From Bacillales bacterium (lineage in GTDB: Bacteria; Bacillota_I; Bacilli_A; RFN20; CAG-826), in the NCBI GenBank assembly GCA_016290145.1, contig JAEESX010000003.1:1-48620 (forward strand): a stretch of 48,620 nt of DNA, written 5' to 3'. The first letter of the stretch is position 1. Each line of letters opens with the position of its first letter. Of this stretch, positions 12,938 to 29,547 are shown one piece after another. The notes beneath the pieces were generated by a model. That model saw only the letters and a list, made by a program, of their open reading frames with translations. It was not told the DNA's origin and did not search any database. Made by a program: the position numbers and the translations under genes.

Positions 12938-14743
12938 ATGAAAATCAAATATTCAATATTCCCGCTTATATGTTCGTTATTAGTCGGATGTGTTCCATCT
13001 AATGGTGCTAAATCTGATGACAAAATCAAATTAACATCTAAAGAAATGACCACTTATCACTATACAAAAGACGAGTCCATCAAGACTGAGGTTTTCTATA
13101 GAAATGATATTTTGGTGAACACTCCATACATCTCCTTAAAGACTTATTACAATTTATTAACCAAACATGATTTAACCATTGTTAAGGGTGATGGTCATAA
13201 ATATACAGTCACAAATGCGAATGGCGAAGTCGCCACAATCGATACAGAAAATGACACACTTGCTTGTGCGGATTATCAAAACTTCATCAGCTCCACTATT
13301 TATAGACAAGACAATGTTTCTAATGTCTACTTTGATGGTGCGCCATTCTTAAGAGTGAAAGATGTTACTGCTACGCAAGCACCAACACCTAAAACAATTA
13401 ATTTCAAAAAATATAACATCAACCTTATCGGTAAAGATGATGACATTCTTCTCCCAGTTTCTACCGCATCTAATATGTTCATGGGACCAACCATGATTAC
13501 ATGTTTCTGCACAAATGATTCCATCTACTTTATTGATCCAAACGATCCTCAATGGGAAACAGGTTCTTTGATGTATGACAGCCACTACATCAGTGGTCTT
13601 AAAAAGACATTTAAGAATGGAACAAGAACTGAAGAAGAAGCCTTATTCTCATATGGTGAATTATGTTTCTTGATTGATACCTATTATGGTTTACCAGGTA
13701 GAGAATATCTCCATGATGCATTAAAAGCATCTAGAGATTTAGATAAAGTATTAAAAGAACATAGCGAAGTCACAAGACAAGCGAGAGAATTCTTAATGTC
13801 CACTGACTATGCTGAATACTTAGCGGGTATTAAAATGCTCGCAGCCTTCATTTCTGATGCCGGTCACTCTGTCGCTGATATAGGAACAAGTTACTACTTG
13901 TATCAAGATAGTTCTTTAAATTCAAAAGTTACTAAAGTATTAAACAAAATCAATTTCCAAGATTCAAAATACGAAGCACCAAGTAATATTGACTATAACT
14001 ATATGTATGGTCTTTATGATGCTAGACAAAATGGACCAAGCGTCTCTGCGAATAGTTATGTCCTAAAAGGTGACACATTATTCTATAGAATGGATCAATT
14101 TGATTTCGATATTTATGATTGGAATGATTTTTATAAAAATCCAATGACAAATCAAATGCCAAAAGATGCAGTCGGCAACTTTAAACGAATGCTTGAAAAA
14201 TATAAGAACAATTCATCAGTTAAAAATGTTGTTGTGGATATCAGTATTAACCCAGGTGGTTATGCGGATATCGTGAGTGCATTTATGGGCTTAATGAATG
14301 CTGGTACATATCAACACTCATACGATACAGTTAACGAAAGAGAAATCACTGTTAATTATGAATTCGATAAAAACTTCGATGGTAAGTTCGATGAACACGA
14401 CGCCGAAGTCCACTACGACTTCAACTTTGCAGTCTTATGTTCCGGTTATTCCTTCTCTTGCGGTAACTTATTACCAGCCCAAGCAAAAGAAAGCGGAATT
14501 GCTTTATTAGGTGATAAATCCGGTGGCGGTTCTTGTGCGGTTATCGATGCTTCAAGCGCGGAAGGTTTATACGTTAGATTATCTTGCCAAGATCACTTAA
14601 TGGGTTTAGATGGAACCGATTATGAATTCGGTGTTCCTGTGGATTATAGTTTGGTTACTAAAAACGGAAGTTATTATGACTTTACAAACTTCTACAATAT
14701 CTCATTGATGTCATTAAAGATTAATCGGTTCTATTCTGAATAA
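12938..14743 (+). CDS. S41 family peptidase lipoprotein
   Basis: Lipobox LVGC; DAGHS, VVDISINPGG, SFSCGN (catalytic Ser), LGDKSGGG; start at ATG 12938 after GGGAGAG. Confidence 0.82.
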   Translation: MKIKYSIFPLICSLLVGCVPSNGAKSDDKIKLTSKEMTTYHYTKDESIKTEVFYRNDILVNTPYISLKTYYNLLTKHDLTIVKGDGHKYTVTNANGEVATIDTENDTLACADYQNFISSTIYRQDNVSNVYFDGAPFLRVKDVTATQAPTPKTINFKKYNINLIGKDDDILLPVSTASNMFMGPTMITCFCTNDSIYFIDPNDPQWETGSLMYDSHYISGLKKTFKNGTRTEEEALFSYGELCFLIDTYYGLPGREYLHDALKASRDLDKVLKEHSEVTRQAREFLMSTDYAEYLAGIKMLAAFISDAGHSVADIGTSYYLYQDSSLNSKVTKVLNKINFQDSKYEAPSNIDYNYMYGLYDARQNGPSVSANSYVLKGDTLFYRMDQFDFDIYDWNDFYKNPMTNQMPKDAVGNFKRMLEKYKNNSSVKNVVVDISINPGGYADIVSAFMGLMNAGTYQHSYDTVNEREITVNYEFDKNFDGKFDEHDAEVHYDFNFAVLCSGYSFSCGNLLPAQAKESGIALLGDKSGGGSCAVIDASSAEGLYVRLSCQDHLMGLDGTDYEFGVPVDYSLVTKNGSYYDFTNFYNISLMSLKINRFYSE

Positions 14744-14755
14744 TAAAAAAGCGTC

Positions 14756-15922
14756 TTACTCAGGCGCTTTTTCTTTTAGAAATTGTTGTAAGAATGAATA
14801 ATGTTTTGAGAACGTTTCATTGAAGTACATCTTATTGATATACATCTTTTCATATTCTGCGTTTTCAAATTTAATCATGTATCTTGAAACATCAGAAGAT
14901 GATTTCTCTTTTTTCTTTTCCGTATCCTTAGGATGAATAAACGATGATTGTGCTTCTAATCTAAATCCTGGTTTTGGTTTCTTAGATGTATATAGCATTG
15001 CTTCTACGAAATCAATTTCAGAGATGCTACTTAGAGGAATAAATAACTTTCTGAATTTGTCTAGAGAGGCTTGTTTAAGAAGTTCTAAATATTGTTCGTT
15101 ATTTCCTAACTCCGCTTTCGAGACAAAGAGGAGTTTTTCTTCTACTGACAATTCACTTATCGCAGTCTTTAAATCTTGTGCGTTTTCTTTGAATCGACAT
15201 AAGGCAATTCTTTGATTTGGCTTATCATAGACCATCGCCATTTGGCTAACTGGATATTCGTTTAATAACTTATCGTGGCCACATACTAGAACGAGTTTTC
15301 TTTTGAAAATATCAAGACTACAACCATAGACACTAACGAATTGTTTCATGAAATAGCTTTCATTAATTTGTTCGTACATCTTTTTATCTTCAATATAGTC
15401 TTCACTTTCTCTCGCTTTATTTAATGCTTCGATAATGTATTCATTGATAGCCTTTAATTCTCTTTCGTAAAGAACCTTATCGTTTTTTTCAAATCTAAAC
15501 ATGATGAAGATTTTACGAGTGGCGGATGTTTTCCACTCAGTGTCATTAATGCCGGTGAACGATTGCTCCACTAGTGCATAGGAAAGTAACGAGATGCATA
15601 ACGCTGGAGCGTCACCTTTATACATTCCATCAAATATTTCAAATACACATTGGTCTAAATCAAATAAACTGATGCGTTCGTAAGATATAAATGAACCATT
15701 ATCTTTGCTGACAATAATGCAGTCTTCATAAATGGTAATAGTTTGACTGCTATAAGCTTCGTTTAATTCTCGATAACCAGAGAAGGTGAATTCAAAGATT
15801 TTCTTTTTTGGAGAGCCTTTTTTCACATAAGTACCTTGGTCTTTTCTTTTCGTAATTAAAATTACGATTAAAACAATAACCGTTATTCCAAAGATAGCTA
15901 AACCAATTATGAGTCCGATCAT
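14756..15922 (-). CDS. Hypothetical protein with N-terminal membrane anchor
   Basis: 388-aa ORF, AAGGGG RBS, single N-terminal TM followed by basic residues; no recognisable family. Confidence 0.75.
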   Translation of the reverse strand: MIGLIIGLAIFGITVIVLIVILITKRKDQGTYVKKGSPKKKIFEFTFSGYRELNEAYSSQTITIYEDCIIVSKDNGSFISYERISLFDLDQCVFEIFDGMYKGDAPALCISLLSYALVEQSFTGINDTEWKTSATRKIFIMFRFEKNDKVLYERELKAINEYIIEALNKARESEDYIEDKKMYEQINESYFMKQFVSVYGCSLDIFKRKLVLVCGHDKLLNEYPVSQMAMVYDKPNQRIALCRFKENAQDLKTAISELSVEEKLLFVSKAELGNNEQYLELLKQASLDKFRKLFIPLSSISEIDFVEAMLYTSKKPKPGFRLEAQSSFIHPKDTEKKKEKSSSDVSRYMIKFENAEYEKMYINKMYFNETFSKHYSFLQQFLKEKAPE

Positions 15923-15983
15923 ACTTCCCCTTAAAGATGATTTATTAATCTTGTAATCAATATAACTTAAAAATATAAATAGT

Positions 15984-16012
15984 AAAAGAAAAGCGATCGC
16001 TCACACGATCGC
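15984..16012 (-). terminator. Intrinsic terminator closing the candidate large ncRNA
   Basis: Minus strand GCGAUCG-ugugag-CGAUCGC-UUUUCUUUU. Confidence 0.85.
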
Positions 16013-16163
16013 GTTAACCGGTTGTTTTGTATCAGGGACGAGCCCTGACACATAACACAAGTTGAGTTCCTTCTGACTGGTGGTGCTTCTTGTTGACGAT
16101 ACGTTTTGAATTGATTAGCGTATCGGTGGCCAGTTTCCTCTAGTTATTAGCTTCGAGGCCGTT

Positions 16164-16244
16164 TTCCTTTTCGTCGTGTCCGGTACTGGATTTATCCCGT
16201 CAAACTCTAACGCGGGAACCAGTGATGCAAGCATCAGGGAGGAA
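16164..16244 (-). repeat. ncRNA core copy 3 (most diverged)
   Basis: UUCCUCCC-UGAUGcuugCAUCA-CUGGU-UCCCGC-GUUAGAGUUUGAC-GGGA-UAAAUCCAGU-ACCGGACACGACGAAAAGGAA. Confidence 0.75.
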
Positions 16245-16480
16245 TGTACCGATCGTTACCTTAATTCAGATAACGCTTTGCTAGTGCAACCATTAGCTAC
16301 GTTTTTTTGATTTCGTAGAACTCCTACATCAATTTGGAGGAGCTGGTTGGCTTATCTAGTCTTGAACTCGTTAGTCCTTTTCTTCGTGAAGTTATCTCTT
16401 CGGAAGTTCTTCACTATCGCTACACGTTTGTTGAGTTATGTAACTTAGGCTTGTTCTGCTTTAATTAGAAGCAGTGTTCT

Positions 16481-16556
16481 TACCTCTTCGATCGTGTCAG
16501 GCGGTGGGATTACGCCGTTAAGTTCTAACTCGGCAACCACTACAAGTAGGGAGGTA
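16481..16556 (-). repeat. ncRNA core copy 2
   Basis: UACCUCCC-UACUUGUA-GUGGU-UGCCGA-GUUAGAACUUAAC-GGCG-UAAUCCCAC-CGCCUGACACGAUCGAAGAGGUA. Confidence 0.88.
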
Positions 16557-16780
16557 AACCTTTAACCAATCCTAGGATTGATTAGCCGCTTGCGATCATA
16601 AACCAGAAGATTTAATCCTGGAACCTTACTATCAACGTCGTGTAATGGTTGATCGTCGATTTCGCGGCTGAACTTCATTGCCCCTTTGCAAAGCATCGTT
16701 GATTGGCTTTGCTTATTTCACGTTGCATGTTAACTTAGCGTGAATGGCAGTGTTATAAGGTATTGGTCTTATAACTTTTG

Positions 16781-16853
16781 TCCTCTTCGACTATGTCGGG
16801 CGGTGGGATTACGCTGTTAAGTTCTAACTCAGCGACCACTGTAGCAGGGAGGA
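16781..16853 (-). repeat. ncRNA core copy 1
   Basis: UCCUCCC-UGCUACA-GUGGU-CGCUGA-GUUAGAACUUAAC-AGCG-UAAUCCCAC-CGCCCGACAUAGUCGAAGAGGA. Confidence 0.88.
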
Positions 16854-17035
16854 TCGACCTCGATTATCACCGAAGTGACAATCTTACTAGTGCAATCATT
16901 AATCTATTGCTTTTAAGCTCTAGAACCGTCGTGTTAACTTCGTTTCCTACGTCGATTGTCTTACCTAGATTTGGGTTAGTGAGTAGCTATTGCTACTCAT
17001 TCCCATCAATTTGGTTTCCCAAGTTGATTGGTAAT

Positions 17036-17064
17036 AGTATCTTCTTTTTTATAAATTAGGTCAA
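17036..17064 (-). promoter_or_regulatory. Sigma70-type promoter for the candidate ncRNA
   Basis: TTGACC (17064-17059), 17 nt spacer, GATACT (17041-17036), with an AT-rich upstream region. Confidence 0.7.
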
Positions 17065-17228
17065 GCACTTTTTTAAAAATTTTTTTCAAGAAGTTAAAAA
17101 CCCTCGATGAAATCTCATGTTTTTTTATAAAAAATTTTCTAAAAATATTTTGTTATTAAAATTATTTCTTTGTTTTATTAATTATTTTTTAAATTGTTTA
17201 GTGCATACACGTATATATGTAGGCAAAA

Positions 17229-17255
17229 TAAAAACCGTCACGAGGACGGTCTTTA
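17229..17255 (-). terminator. Intrinsic terminator of the upstream small membrane gene
   Basis: Minus strand ACCGUC-cucgu-GACGGU-UUUUAUUUU. Confidence 0.75.
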
Positions 17256-17271
17256 GTTTAGAACAAACTGA

Positions 17272-17565
17272 TTATTCAGCTTTTTCTTCTTTAGCTTCTG
17301 CGACTGGTTGTTCTTTTTCTTTTTTGCCGAATGCCAATGGGACTGGAGCGCCTTTAATTGCGGCAACAAGATCGAGAACCCAAACAACGATAGAAACAAG
17401 TGGGACCACATTAAGAATTAAATAGATTAAGTGATCCTTGTTTTGGGCTTTTTCTTCGATTACGTTGAATAAACGGTAAAGGAAATAAATGATAGCCACA
17501 AAAATTGCGAAAACAATTCTTAAGCCTTTTCCAAGTCCGTCAACCCACTTCTTATAACCTTCCAT
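17272..17565 (-). CDS. Small 2-TM membrane protein
   Basis: AAAGGA RBS, two hydrophobic segments, charged tail. Confidence 0.75.
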   Translation of the reverse strand: MEGYKKWVDGLGKGLRIVFAIFVAIIYFLYRLFNVIEEKAQNKDHLIYLILNVVPLVSIVVWVLDLVAAIKGAPVPLAFGKKEKEQPVAEAKEEKAE

Positions 17566-17745
17566 GTTTGATTTCCTTTCTTAAGTTATATTTATTATAT
17601 AACTACATGAGTATAAACAAGAAGTATTTTATGTAAACATAGTTTAATATTTTCAAAAATATGTTCCGACATTTTTGCACGATGTAATCAAATTTTTTAG
17701 ATTTTTAAATATGTTTAATTACGGTAAAGAAATATAATAATTTTG

Positions 17746-18993
17746 ATGGGAAAAGATAAGAAGTATCCTCAAATAGATCCTGGTTTACCATACCATCGTA
17801 CTTGGCTTATTTTTTATATTGTTATTTGGATCATTGCTCTAATTAACAAACTAATGAATAAAGCAAAAATCGTTAAGAAGAACAAACTACCAAAACCTCC
17901 ATATATTTTGATATCCACTCACGCATCAATGCTTGATTTCTATATGGCGTTAATGCTCACATTCCCACATAAGGTTTATTGGATATCCACAGTAGAAGAA
18001 TTCATTCCTCGTTTCTTCATCTTTAGAAGAATCGGTGTCTTAGCAAAAAGAAAATTCACTAACGATCCTAAAGGCGCGATGAGATACATGGAAGTTCTTC
18101 AAAAGAAGAAGATTTTGGTCATTTATCCTGAGGCACGTTATTCTTTCATGGGAGAAACAGAGAGAATTGACAAGGGAATAGGCAAAATGGCCAAAATGGC
18201 GAACGTTCCAGTGGTTTTCATAAGAGAACACGGAAACTATTTATATTGCCCTCAATGGAGCGATCACAAGGTACGTAAAATACGTCCAATCGTTGATGAA
18301 GTTGAGACCATTATCACAAGAAACGATTTAGAGGTCATGGACGCGAATGATATTCAACAAAGAATCGAAGAGAACTTTGTGAACTCTGAAGAAGATTGGA
18401 TGAGAAGAAAACACATTCTCATCAAGTATCCTAACCGTGCAGTCGGATTAGAAAGAATCCTATATAAGTGTCCACATTGCGGAACCGAATTTGAAATGAG
18501 TACAGAAACTCACTTCATAAAATGTGACCACTGCGGTGCAAAATATGACTACTTAGAAAATGGTCAGTTACAACGCGTTGATGGAGAAGGTAAATTTACT
18601 TATCCAAGCGAATGGTATAAATGGGAAAAAGCCTGTGTTAAAGAAGAAGTCCTTAACGGCACATATCATTTTGAAGATGATGTTCGTGTGGAAAAGTTAT
18701 TAGGCGCAAAGATTGGCTTTGTTCCTCAAGAAGGCCACTACCACTTAACACACGATATTAATGAAGGATTCGTAGTCAAAGGAACTGATAATGACTTTGA
18801 ATTCAAACGTTCTTCATTACAAAGCTATGCTCTTCATATTGAATACAATTATTTAGATAGAGGTGCATTCCTCGAATTAGCGGATCTTGAAAGCATATAT
18901 TTTATATATCCACTAAACAAGCCAAAAGAATTAACAAAGATTCACTTCGCTGTTGAACATATCTACGATTTCAAAAAATCACAAATCAAATAA
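17746..18993 (+). CDS. Lysophospholipid / 1-acyl-glycerol-3-phosphate acyltransferase with Zn-ribbon extension
   Basis: HASMLD (HX4D), IYPEA, CPHC...CDHC. Confidence 0.85.
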   Translation: MGKDKKYPQIDPGLPYHRTWLIFYIVIWIIALINKLMNKAKIVKKNKLPKPPYILISTHASMLDFYMALMLTFPHKVYWISTVEEFIPRFFIFRRIGVLAKRKFTNDPKGAMRYMEVLQKKKILVIYPEARYSFMGETERIDKGIGKMAKMANVPVVFIREHGNYLYCPQWSDHKVRKIRPIVDEVETIITRNDLEVMDANDIQQRIEENFVNSEEDWMRRKHILIKYPNRAVGLERILYKCPHCGTEFEMSTETHFIKCDHCGAKYDYLENGQLQRVDGEGKFTYPSEWYKWEKACVKEEVLNGTYHFEDDVRVEKLLGAKIGFVPQEGHYHLTHDINEGFVVKGTDNDFEFKRSSLQSYALHIEYNYLDRGAFLELADLESIYFIYPLNKPKELTKIHFAVEHIYDFKKSQIK

Positions 18994-19024
18994 AGAAAAG
19001 CACCTCTTGCGAGATGCTTCTTTT

Positions 19025-22747: not shown

Positions 22748-23725
22748 TTAAGTTACTGAGAATGTATTGCTAATGGTAAATACTGTATGGTTTCTTCCAA
22801 TAACAAGAGTGGCAGTTAATACAACTGAACCTGCCTTAAGAAGTTTGAAATAGAATGGGCTTCCATTAGGGAATGGGGCGGTTGTAGATGTAGTATCATC
22901 CGCTGAAAACTCTGGAACTGCAACTTCAGTGTCACTGGATGTAAGTATACAAGAATGCAATTCACCAGAGAATGCTACCTTAAACCAGAAGAATTTTCCT
23001 GCAGAATCACTTGTCCATCTATTAAATATGCCCAACCTTGCAGCAGGCTCTATATTGAAATGTAAATTATCTATAATTGCGAAAGCGGTTATAGAGTTGT
23101 AGTTAAACATGTATTTGTCATTGATTTTAATACCATTAACTTTTTTATCTAATGCGATAGGACTATCTTGGTGACTTGCCAACGTTGGCATACTAGCGAA
23201 AACAAAGTATTCTAAGTGCCACCAATCCTCGTCGATATTAGTAACGACAAATGAAGATTTGTCATTTACTGTATCTGAACCACCTTGTTCAGTACCTTGA
23301 CCAGAATTATTATTCATAAATGTAACACTTGGAAAACCCTTGTTATTTTGTTCTCTTTTGTATTTGTGATAGTAATCAAATTCAATTTTAAAGAACCGAA
23401 TTTCGCTTAGATAATAATCCCTATCAAAATTAATATGAATAATATGGTTTCCACTTGATGATCCAGTAGTGCTTGTCATTCTAATGGCTTCGTAACTGTC
23501 TTGAGTTATGGTGGTTTCTTTAGTCAAAGTCAAATTACTACTGCTGCGGACATAGCTGGTTTTAGCAAAGTCAGTATCTTCAAGGAATTTCCATGTTGGG
23601 AAGTTGGCTTGGATGGAATTATCCGTATTTTGAGCATTAGTCATAGCCCAAGCGGAATGACCCACACCAAACAAACTAGCGGAAGCGATAATTCCAGCTA
23701 AGAAAAGTAAAATTTTATTCTTCAT
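22748..23725 (-). CDS. Secreted protein with SipW-type signal peptide, paralog D (lacks the family N-terminal domain)
   Basis: Signal ...LFGVGHSAW; EFDYY, WWHLE, IIDNL, FKVAFSGELHSC, SPFY, GSVVLTATLVIG shared with A-C. Confidence 0.85.
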   Translation of the reverse strand: MKNKILLFLAGIIASASLFGVGHSAWAMTNAQNTDNSIQANFPTWKFLEDTDFAKTSYVRSSSNLTLTKETTITQDSYEAIRMTSTTGSSSGNHIIHINFDRDYYLSEIRFFKIEFDYYHKYKREQNNKGFPSVTFMNNNSGQGTEQGGSDTVNDKSSFVVTNIDEDWWHLEYFVFASMPTLASHQDSPIALDKKVNGIKINDKYMFNYNSITAFAIIDNLHFNIEPAARLGIFNRWTSDSAGKFFWFKVAFSGELHSCILTSSDTEVAVPEFSADDTTSTTAPFPNGSPFYFKLLKAGSVVLTATLVIGRNHTVFTISNTFSVT

Positions 23726-24480
23726 GCCTTTTCTCCTTTCATTCGCTTCTTATTAATTTTGGTGATTTGGTGATTGCCAACTTCAGAAACTACGGTGATA
23801 CCAATAATGCCCACTAATGACCAAAGGCCAAAATAAGATTGAGCATACAAAATGAAAGAGCCGATACCACGAACTTTTCTACCTGTGTAGTGATAAACTA
23901 CCTTATCTCTCGTAATTAATTGATGGGTAGCATCAAAGTCAGAGACAGGGTTATTGTCTCCTCTGAATTCATAACCGGTTTCGTGTATCGTATCTAATCT
24001 ATGTGTGATTATGACATCTTTATATTTATAGCCGTAGATTTCACCCTCAACGAGTTCGCTTTGATCTGACAATTTTTCAAAGACACAAATATCTCCAACA
24101 CCAAATTGTAATCTCTTATTGTTGTTATATTTTGAGGCTATTTCATCATCATAGAATCCTGACATTGAGTCGGTTTTAATGACGAGGGAAGTTTGGTTAT
24201 TAATAGTGAAGTTCTCACCACTTACTTTATAGACTAATCCCGCTACAAATAAGCTCAGCACTACTGAAAGGAGAACATAAGATCCTATAAGTCCTATAAG
24301 TCCTCCTTTCTTACTTTTCTTATCACGATATTCTTTGAGAATTTCTTTATCGTGTTTACCAAGGTTGACTTCTAACTTATAAGATTTTATGCAAGCACTA
24401 TAGGCTAACCAAGTTAGACCAAAAATGATTGCGGTTAAGAGCACAATCACGACTATCGTAATAATCGTAATTGAATTCAT
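23722..24480 (-). CDS. sipW: SipW-like (S26B, ER-type) signal peptidase I
   Basis: IKTDSMS (Ser), VGD, ITHR (His), FRGDNN--D; flanking TM helices. Confidence 0.78.
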   Translation of the reverse strand: MNSITIITIVVIVLLTAIIFGLTWLAYSACIKSYKLEVNLGKHDKEILKEYRDKKSKKGGLIGLIGSYVLLSVVLSLFVAGLVYKVSGENFTINNQTSLVIKTDSMSGFYDDEIASKYNNNKRLQFGVGDICVFEKLSDQSELVEGEIYGYKYKDVIITHRLDTIHETGYEFRGDNNPVSDFDATHQLITRDKVVYHYTGRKVRGIGSFILYAQSYFGLWSLVGIIGITVVSEVGNHQITKINKKRMKGEKA

Positions 24481-24490
24481 ATCCTATACC

Positions 24491-25099
24491 TTAGTGAATA
24501 GCTGAAACATTAAATGTAAATGCAAATGTTAAACTGAGTGCAGCAACTTCTGCTTGTAAAGAATTAACTTCTGAAACACTTGTTGGAATTTGAGCGTATT
24601 CAACTGCTGGTAAATTCCAAACATATTCAACATCGGCATCCGCGGCTGTAGATGTAACTGTTTGATCTAAAGCACTTGTCGCGGCGATGTTAACCCATGT
24701 TCCATTAACAGCGGCTGTGGCTGTAGATGCGAAGTGGCCATCGTAAGTTTCGATATCAGCGATATCATTGTCATCTTCTTCAACAGAACCAATGAGTGTT
24801 AAAGATGTGATCTTCTTAGAGACATCGTTTGAGTCTTCAGTGGACCAATAGATGCCATTACCATCTAAAAGACCTTCTTCACCAGCTGGAGCATCGCAAA
24901 TGAGATAAATGCCTGTAATCTCATTGCCTGCGGCGTCTTTAACTTTTAAGTCTTTCGCTTCGATTGCGGCGGTGACTTTTGGTTCTACATCAACGTCCGC
25001 GTCGACTGTTTTTGTAAAACCCCATGCAGCGAAACCGACACCAACAAAAGCGAGGGTAGCTGCACCAGAAATGATTGCTAATTTGTTACGTAATTTCAT
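24491..25099 (-). CDS. SipW-cognate secreted protein (TasA/camelysin-like fibre subunit candidate)
   Basis: Signal ...FVGVGFAAWGFT, acidic Ala/Thr/Val-rich mature part, terminal beta-strand LTFAFTFNV; first gene before sipW. Confidence 0.72.
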   Translation of the reverse strand: MKLRNKLAIISGAATLAFVGVGFAAWGFTKTVDADVDVEPKVTAAIEAKDLKVKDAAGNEITGIYLICDAPAGEEGLLDGNGIYWSTEDSNDVSKKITSLTLIGSVEEDDNDIADIETYDGHFASTATAAVNGTWVNIAATSALDQTVTSTAADADVEYVWNLPAVEYAQIPTSVSEVNSLQAEVAALSLTFAFTFNVSAIH

Positions 25100-25142: not shown

Positions 25143-25232
25143 CCATCATTGAAGCAGCTGGCTGTCCATTATCTTCGGACCCTATAGTTTTGCGACCCCA
25201 AATCTCTTTAGGTGTGCCTTTGTATACGATGA
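25143..25232 (-). promoter_or_regulatory. c-di-GMP-I (GEMM) riboswitch
   Basis: Minus strand AAAGGCACAC-CUAAA-GAGA-UUUGG-GGUCGCAAAACUAUAGGGUCC...GGACAGCCAGCUGC matches the GGCAAAC..GNRA..CGCAAA..CAGCCAGUUGC consensus; lies in the 5' UTR. Confidence 0.88.
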
Positions 25233-29471: not shown

Positions 29472-29547
29472 TGGTGGATCTAATCGGGATCGAACCGACG
29501 ACCTCATCGTTGCGAACGATGCGCTCTCCCAACTGAGCTACAGACCC
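29472..29547 (-). tRNA. tRNA-Ala (CGC)
   Basis: GGGTCTGTAGCTCAGTTGGGAGAGCG-CATCG-TTCGCAA-CGATG-AGGTCGTCGGTTCGATCCCGATTAGATCCACCA; G3:U70 identity pair and encoded CCA. Confidence 0.96.

Follow-up and report, generated by a model that had tools for sequence, protein, structure and literature searches.

The closest catalogued relative of the RNA described here is cow-rumen-1 (Rfam RF02946), which is listed as a small RNA, a hairpin of 61 nucleotides (nt), and which reportedly comes from a 2017 survey of 224 candidate structured RNAs. The main text of that survey does not name cow-rumen-1 (PMC5737381). Three cores matching this family lie on the minus strand of contig JAEESX010000003.1 from a Bacillales bacterium (assembly GCA_016290145.1); the whole stretch analyzed, 48,620 nt, is referred to as the window. 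Each core aligns with the full length of the model (positions 1-61 of 61) and scores 74.6-79.6 bits, above the gathering score of 53.4 bits; the rumen habitat is shared as well. The main differences between the catalogued element and the window RNA are that the latter is predicted to be a gene of ~1,045 nt with three cores (five or seven in relatives), that each core has a partner 136-176 nt past its loop, beyond the end of the model, and that the model has an apical stem where the data favor a long-range pseudoknot. Thus far, only the 61-nt hairpin of this RNA has been catalogued.

Other large bacterial RNAs resemble the window RNA in scale. ROOL, GOLLD, and OLE are likewise non-coding, of kilobase scale, rich in pseudoknots and in covarying helices, which number in the dozens, and found in rumen or gut hosts of the Firmicutes type (PMC5737381; PMC12286853). 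By its size of more than 500 nt, its non-coding nature, and its many covarying helices, the window RNA counts as a large ornate bacterial RNA. In contrast to the three named RNAs, it has no match to their Rfam models (a cmscan search of 15800-17300 at E values up to 10 found none to ROOL, GOLLD, OLE, raiA, or HEARO), and it is composed of tandem homologous modules, which are not described for them. A transfer RNA (tRNA) association has been reported for ROOL and GOLLD, whereas the window RNA has neither nearby prophage genes nor an adjacent tRNA. ROOL, GOLLD, and OLE have also been shown to form homo-oligomeric RNA-only assemblies.

Repetition within one RNA is a feature of two further groups. 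Tandem riboswitch aptamers, such as those for glycine, are repeated homologous units with tertiary contacts that organize them. The window RNA is similar in carrying repeated homologous folded units in one transcript, but its modules are ~300 nt long, number three to seven, and are followed by their own terminator and a varying downstream gene. Because of this terminator and the differing downstream genes, no expression platform or regulated gene is assigned to the RNA, and a conserved downstream gene under its control was not found among 49 loci. Protein-sponge RNAs such as CsrB and RsmZ are built from short hairpin repeats without long-range tertiary pairing. The window RNA shares with them the many copies of one conserved element per RNA and a copy number that varies between relatives, and differs in that its repeats are intricately folded pseudoknotted domains. 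No paper that names cow-rumen-1 or describes the large RNA or its pseudoknot was found; the supplement of the 2017 survey, which was outside the search, may mention tandem copies. As far as the literature searched extends, an RNA of three, five, or seven homologous pseudoknotted modules has not been described. Natural bacterial RNAs of such size and of unknown function are rare.

In each ~300-nt module, six bases at the tip of the core hairpin almost certainly pair with six bases 136-176 nt downstream, forming a long-range pseudoknot that replaces the weak three-base-pair apical stem of the catalogued model. Standard pairs are possible at all six positions in every copy of the window; copy 1 is entirely Watson-Crick, and copies 2 and 3 have one G-U pair each. 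The six hexamers had been located in an original prediction made from the window sequence, and all six positions are exact when read on the minus strand (Table 1). By itself, the window makes a weak, suggestive case for these complements. In 20,000 shuffles of the downstream sequence per unit, a 6/6 complement arises anywhere 40-290 nt downstream in 37%, 30%, and 75% of shuffles for units 1, 2, and 3, respectively. At offsets of 135-160, a range picked after the fact, the corresponding values are 4.9%, 3.4%, and 18%, with a product of ~3e-4. Four further hexamer complements are present in the window, at offsets 198, 263, 202, and 162.

Table 1. Features of the three-module RNA gene (positions in the window)
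Feature	Position	Strand	Basis or remark
Sigma-70-type promoter, TTGACC, 17-nt spacer, GATACT	17036..17064	(-)	consensus scan
Non-coding RNA, ~1,045 nt, three tandem structured modules	15985..17029	(-)	predicted; ends placed from promoter and terminator
Module 1 core, cow-rumen-1 (RF02946)	16782..16842	(-)	cmscan, 79.6 bits
Pseudoknot 1 loop hexamer, GAACUU	16819..16824	(-)	alignment columns 324-329
Pseudoknot 1 partner, AAGUUC	16670..16675	(-)	alignment columns 532-537
Helix abutting partner 1, 16669-16665 with 16588-16584	16584..16669	(-)	closes linker domain before module 2
Module 2 core, cow-rumen-1 (RF02946)	16483..16543	(-)	cmscan, 78.7 bits
Pseudoknot 2 loop hexamer, GAACUU	16520..16525	(-)	alignment columns 708-713
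Pseudoknot 2 partner, GAGUUC	16364..16369	(-)	alignment columns 907-912
Helix closing linker domain after partner 2	16361-16356 / 16284-16280	(-)	helix 26; two A between
Module 3 core closing helix	16244-16240 / 16168-16164	(-)	helix 31; 2 of 5 pairs changed on both sides
Module 3 core, cow-rumen-1 (RF02946)	16166..16225	(-)	cmscan, 74.6 bits
Pseudoknot 3 loop hexamer, GAGUUU	16202..16207	(-)	alignment columns 1082-1087
Pseudoknot 3 partner, GAACUC	16064..16069	(-)	alignment columns 1222-1227
Hairpin stem closing loop with partner 3	16092-16089 / 16061-16058	(-)	predicted; pairs nearly invariant
Intrinsic terminator, 8-base-pair stem and U tract	15984..16012	(-)	stem covaries; helix 40, 4/4 pairs with both-side changes

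Homologues provide the evidence that carries the pairing. The same three-core RNA was found in two genomes of the window's family, and compensating differences could be recognized in them by eye, copy 2 reading GAGCUU/AAGCUU and copy 3 AAGUUU/GAACUU. For a wider collection, two public collections were searched with a pattern composed of the conserved core blocks, in which the six loop letters were left free and the partner was left out. The scan yielded 46 loci in rumen metagenome-assembled genomes and 100 metagenome stretches, and a core profile then gave 477 core matches in 149 sources. Alignment A1 comprises 52 distinct full-length three-unit RNAs, with the window RNA as its first row, and has 1,392 columns and a mean column identity of 63%.

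Standard pairs form in 99.1% of the 936 cells at the 18 pseudoknot pairs of A1 (99.0%, 99.4%, and 99.0% for pseudoknots 1, 2, and 3). Ten of the 18 pairs are changed on both sides, in 61 cells, a level reached in 0 of 500 shuffles; these pairs are distributed over all three pseudoknots (four, three, and three of six). Sliding the 3' partner by one to three columns leaves no more than 60.4% of cells paired and no more than two pairs with changes on both sides. At the pair 1082/1227 of pseudoknot 3, A-U, G-C, U-A, C-G, and G-U all occur, including the four Watson-Crick combinations. The four other complements in the window were rejected: they are 6/6 in only 34, 3, 5, and 12 of the 52 rows, and no compensatory pattern is seen in them.

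Pair-state changes were followed on a tree built without the pseudoknot columns. Five pairs changed state at least 4, 7, 9, 5, and 8 times, nearly always on both sides together, with at least nine changes at the pair 710/910 of pseudoknot 2. Since these changes recur on the tree, the covariation cannot be attributed to one inherited event. Pairs of the G-U type are frequent, and U-G is present at 1087/1222 in 52 of 52 rows. Because such pairs would be C-A mismatches on the opposite strand, the constraint acts on the minus-strand RNA.

A larger set of units gave a consistent picture. Partner sites were placed by a profile of the flanking context rather than by complementarity to the unit's own loop, which was possible for 339 of 346 unique units; 302 of the 339 pair at 6/6 and 327 at 5/6 or better. 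By unit type, 105, 126, and 71 units pair at 6/6, compared with means of 74.0, 81.6, and 53.7 after shuffling loops within each type, and the observed count was reached in 0 of 2,000 shuffles. Rare loops are found with matching partners: GAUCUU with AAGAUU, GGACUU with GAGUCC, GGAUUU with AAAUCU, UAGCUU with GAGCUA, CAGUUU with GAACUG, UAGUUU with GAACUA, and AGGUUU with GAACCU. Taken together, these comparisons indicate that the hexamer pairings are almost certainly real, conserved RNA base pairings. The claim of a base-paired tertiary contact formed once per unit is borne out by covariation in all three units and also in units of five- and seven-unit arrays. For modeling, the pseudoknots provide three firm tertiary constraints, the first three-dimensional constraints on this large RNA.

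The position of the hexamer with respect to the catalogued fold is less simple than the term "apical loop," used in the original prediction, implies. The hexamer is indeed located at the tip of the core hairpin; in the Rfam model, however, it is not a free loop but comprises the final two bases of the loop, the 3' strand of a three-base-pair apical stem (model positions 14-16 with 21-23), and one bulged base. Because the same bases are used, the apical stem and the pseudoknot are mutually exclusive. The apical stem is pairable in 88.9% of 468 cells and shows changes on both sides at one of nine pairs, a result that 377 of 500 shuffles equal; a module 3 pair of this stem cannot form in 47 of 52 rows. 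It contributes ~0.9 kcal/mol to the hairpin in units 1 and 2, versus approximately -4 kcal/mol for the six-base-pair duplex. On these comparative grounds, support at the hairpin tip is stronger for the pseudoknot, which would correct the catalogued secondary structure there.

The distance from loop to partner also bears on how a module is organized. Among the homologues the span is 145-173, 155-176, and 136-139 nt in modules 1, 2, and 3, respectively. The contact had been proposed to define domains of ~300 nt; it does occur once per unit, but a span of 136-176 nt closes only the 3' half of a module, and the ~300-nt period therefore reflects module length rather than contact span. As predicted, an A follows each partner in the window, and in the 52 homologues A is present at the three sites in 42, 46, and 52 rows, with G in the remainder. 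The A after partner 1 is explained by its being part of the first pair of the abutting helix. In this helix, the pair 538/641 forms in 52 of 52 rows (A-U in 42, G-C in the other 10), the pair 541/638 is C-G in 30 and U-A in 17, and the pair 542/637 shows four pair types. No spacer separates partner and helix in module 1, and two A residues do so in modules 2 and 3. The helix beside the partner is the closing helix of the next linker domain in modules 1 and 2 and the stem of a local predicted hairpin in module 3.

These features can be combined into a model of the whole RNA. Pairing within one molecule would lock each module's 3' half to its core, and the pseudoknot helix would probably stack on the neighboring helix, fixing the orientation of one module with respect to the next. 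A chain of three, five, or seven modules could then act as a rigid scaffold that displays the repeated, near-invariant internal loop to a partner. The statement as a whole, that the conserved pairings form in cis, lock the 3' half of each module, and make a scaffold, is regarded as probable, with considerable reserve. Several observations weigh against it. The 52 aligned RNAs, all from related rumen organisms, cannot be counted as independent samples. Thirty-seven of the 339 context-placed units fall below 6/6, several of them being failures of the context alignment, and at least two variant units have only ~4 base pairs. Most loop changes are transitions that retain wobble pairs with the local stem, and the apical-stem pair 320/327 goes from G-C to A-U in four rows, which leaves room for a transient or alternative local state. 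Covariation reads alike for pairing within one molecule and between identical molecules, and the ROOL bridge B4 and the GOLLD bridge B7 were called by covariation and later found to be intermolecular by cryo-electron microscopy (PMC12286853). Finally, the grounds for coaxial stacking and for a scaffold role are wholly anatomical.

Three other explanations of the complements were weighed. Chance matches, or conserved motifs (for example, protein-binding words) that do not pair, would account for the ease with which a 6/6 complement appears downstream in window shuffles (30-75%) and for the presence of the four other complements. They would not account for concerted changes of both sides at 10 of 18 pairs, for the repeated independent events on the tree, for all four Watson-Crick combinations at one pair, for slid and shuffled controls that do not match the observed level, or for the lack of covariation in the other complements, and this explanation is considered extremely improbable. 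A toggle of the hexamer between the local apical stem and the pseudoknot, in which a ligand, a protein, or folding during transcription would decide the state, is more plausible than chance yet still improbable. The two structures exclude each other, as a toggle would require, 98.1% of module 1 cells and 99.4% of module 2 cells allow the local stem to pair, and the wobble-retaining transitions and the exchange at 320/327 fit with it. Against a toggle are the scarcity of both-side changes in the local stem, which is no better than in most shuffles, the unpaired position of module 3, the marginal stability of the stem in units 1 and 2, and the absence, among the 49 loci, of a conserved downstream gene that a switch could control.

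The most serious alternative is that the same pairs form between molecules or between non-cognate modules, as bridges that build a dimer, a chain, or a closed RNA-only particle. In ROOL and GOLLD, long-range contacts first seen by covariation proved to be intermolecular bridges in RNA-only cages (PMC12286853), and the indifference of covariation to cis and trans pairing applies here with equal force. Cognate loop and partner hexamers pair at 6/6 in 49, 50, and 49 of the 52 RNAs, and non-cognate combinations do so in 6 to 37 of 52. Cognate pairing is thus far stricter, which argues that selection acts on the cognate pairs. Because non-cognate 6/6 matches are nevertheless common and the hexamer set is fully orthogonal in only 1 of 52 RNAs, the sequence allows swapping; in the window itself, loops 1 and 2 are identical, and tandem modules would render such contacts multivalent. 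On the other side, loop and partner lie 136-176 nt apart in one module, with only hairpins between them, which makes the intramolecular reading the simpler one, and strict cognate pairing speaks against free swapping of modules, although not against cognate pairing in trans. Pairing between molecules or modules is accordingly held to be unlikely, though much less so than a toggle. Its more specific form, in which the hexamers are intermolecular bridges and the modules zip several RNA copies together as a chain or closed particle made of RNA only, is considered slightly less likely again; if true, it would give natural RNA quaternary assemblies a new type of architecture, made of repeated modules rather than one large fold. 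The anatomy suggests either a multivalent scaffold or a self-assembling RNA, and the six mutable base pairs per module offer a handle for distinguishing a rod of locked domains, as favored here, from intermolecular assembly as in ROOL and GOLLD.

The fold of the complete RNA was modeled with RNAalifold on A1, and the three pseudoknots were added. It contains 182 predicted pairs in 40 helices, and 96.9% of the 9,441 cells pair; both-side changes occur at 113 pairs, a number that 0 of 500 shuffles reached, and slid controls are 30-42% paired. Each module is predicted to consist, in order, of a linker domain with a short closing helix, a hairpin, the core hairpin with its near-invariant internal loop, two or three further hairpins, and the partner hexamer. 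A closing helix of the core, as listed for module 3, is presumed to form also in module 1, where its four core pairs are nearly invariant. This helix, CCUC with GAGG, may resemble a Shine-Dalgarno/anti-Shine-Dalgarno duplex, a likeness that is given little weight.

Three candidate helices were rejected. The cross-module helix 352-356/1030-1033 proposed by RNAalifold has no pair changed on both sides, nor does the helix 539-541/672-674, for which the alternative 538-542/637-641 is better supported after partner 1. The third, joining an invariant block that lies upstream of core 3 to the conserved block that follows the core hairpin, would contain, as judged by eye, one A-C pair in about half of the rows. 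In the leader (around 16969-16974), a linker domain like that after partner 2 stands before module 1, with no preceding loop to pair. For the bases just upstream (16975-16972), RNAalifold with ribosum scoring predicts a local helix of four base pairs, 17004-17001 / 16975-16972 (columns 101-104 with 133-136), which is paired in 34-49 of 52 rows.

Several features indicate that the RNA is encoded by a gene of its own. The TTGAC/TTGCA and -10 blocks of the promoter align across the 52-row alignment, and transcription would start near 17029. On the other side, the terminator is at 16012-15993 and has a U tract. Stop-to-stop frames in the 52 RNAs reach at most 58-119 amino acids, so that no long reading frame is present. 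Other Rfam families were not detected by cmscan in 15800-17300 at E values up to 10, where the output consisted of cow-rumen-1 and four sub-threshold chance matches. Tandem Repeats Finder reported only short AT-rich repeats and no array in 14000-19000, the modules being too diverged for it. The neighboring genes are ordinary chromosomal genes for an S41 peptidase, an acyltransferase, transporters, an SPFH protein, and several proteins without a family; the Pfam families of 20 flanking proteins are ordinary transport and metabolic ones, with no phage family among them. Any one flanking protein family is shared by at most 5 of 49 loci, and the downstream gene varies between relatives. Given its own promoter and terminator, the lack of a recurrent flanking family, and the differing downstream genes, the comparative data mark the RNA as a free-standing gene and not a leader.

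The number of modules differs between relatives. Cores are spaced by ~300 nt, and arrays have mostly three units and sometimes five or seven. Three unit types can be distinguished by the context of the partner, and these are ordered first-middle-last, with the first-middle pair reiterated in longer arrays. Complete first-middle-last arrays number 56, in addition to several five-unit arrays. Since long arrays consist of first-middle repeats and one last-type unit, the unit of duplication appears to be two modules. Five-core arrays with a spacing of ~310 nt were observed at loci L032, L036, L060, L062, L087, L092, L098, L105, and L135, and seven cores with the same spacing at locus L076 (1-2072). 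A variant core with a shorter loop containing GUAUA and a partner site containing UGUAC, in which, by eye, a pairing of five base pairs is shifted by one base, occurs as the second unit of five-unit arrays (L060:979, L092:481, L110:979); its sequence is unrelated to the usual hexamers. Some genomes have several copies of the RNA gene: two adjacent three-unit genes lie on one contig (L123/L124), and genome G178 has nine core matches on three contigs (C6, C13, and C20).

The distribution of the RNA is narrow. Of 150 other species sampled in the window's family, 18, representing 9 of 48 genera, gave matches to cow-rumen-1, with mostly three matches per positive genome and some with five or nine; these and the following figures are from samples, in which stricter filters can lose weak matches. 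An order-level sample contained two positives among 40 family members and none among 110 genomes of other families, and a class-level sample gave 0 of 150 other genomes. One of five other species of the window's genus has a match; the genus members without one (G030, G205, G227, and G262) are 93-99% complete, and the RNA is thus patchy among close relatives. According to the record titles, all 46 genome loci are in ruminant metagenome bins labeled Bacilli, Bacillales, or Erysipelotrichaceae. Within the genome samples, all occurrences of the RNA fall in a single family of rumen Bacilli with small genomes.

Two other RNA elements are present in the window. The nearest tRNA (RF00005, 62 bits) is at 29475-29547 on the minus strand, ~12 kilobases from the RNA and not adjacent to it. 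A cyclic di-GMP-I riboswitch aptamer (RF01051) at 25150-25228, also on the minus strand, scores 47.3 bits against a gathering score of 35 and is positioned upstream of minus-strand open reading frames 24491-25099, 23722-24480, and 22748-23725, to which no Pfam family was assigned.

The RNA is present in rumen RNA libraries. Six RNA-labeled runs from four studies contain at least a third of the sampled words, and contigs on 16004-17005 are present in four RNA libraries, one per study. In these four runs, the word depth in six bins of 16004-17005 is 735 to 35,151, compared with 0 to 10.5 in the flanks 14000-16003 and 17006-19000; contig depths sum over relatives, and the contigs do not speak to transcript ends, strand, or level. 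In three of the four runs, contigs join the module 2 core (16507) to the module 1 core (16805-16813), skipping ~301 nt, and these skips most likely stem from an assembly that collapsed at the repeated cores or from relatives that have a different number of units.

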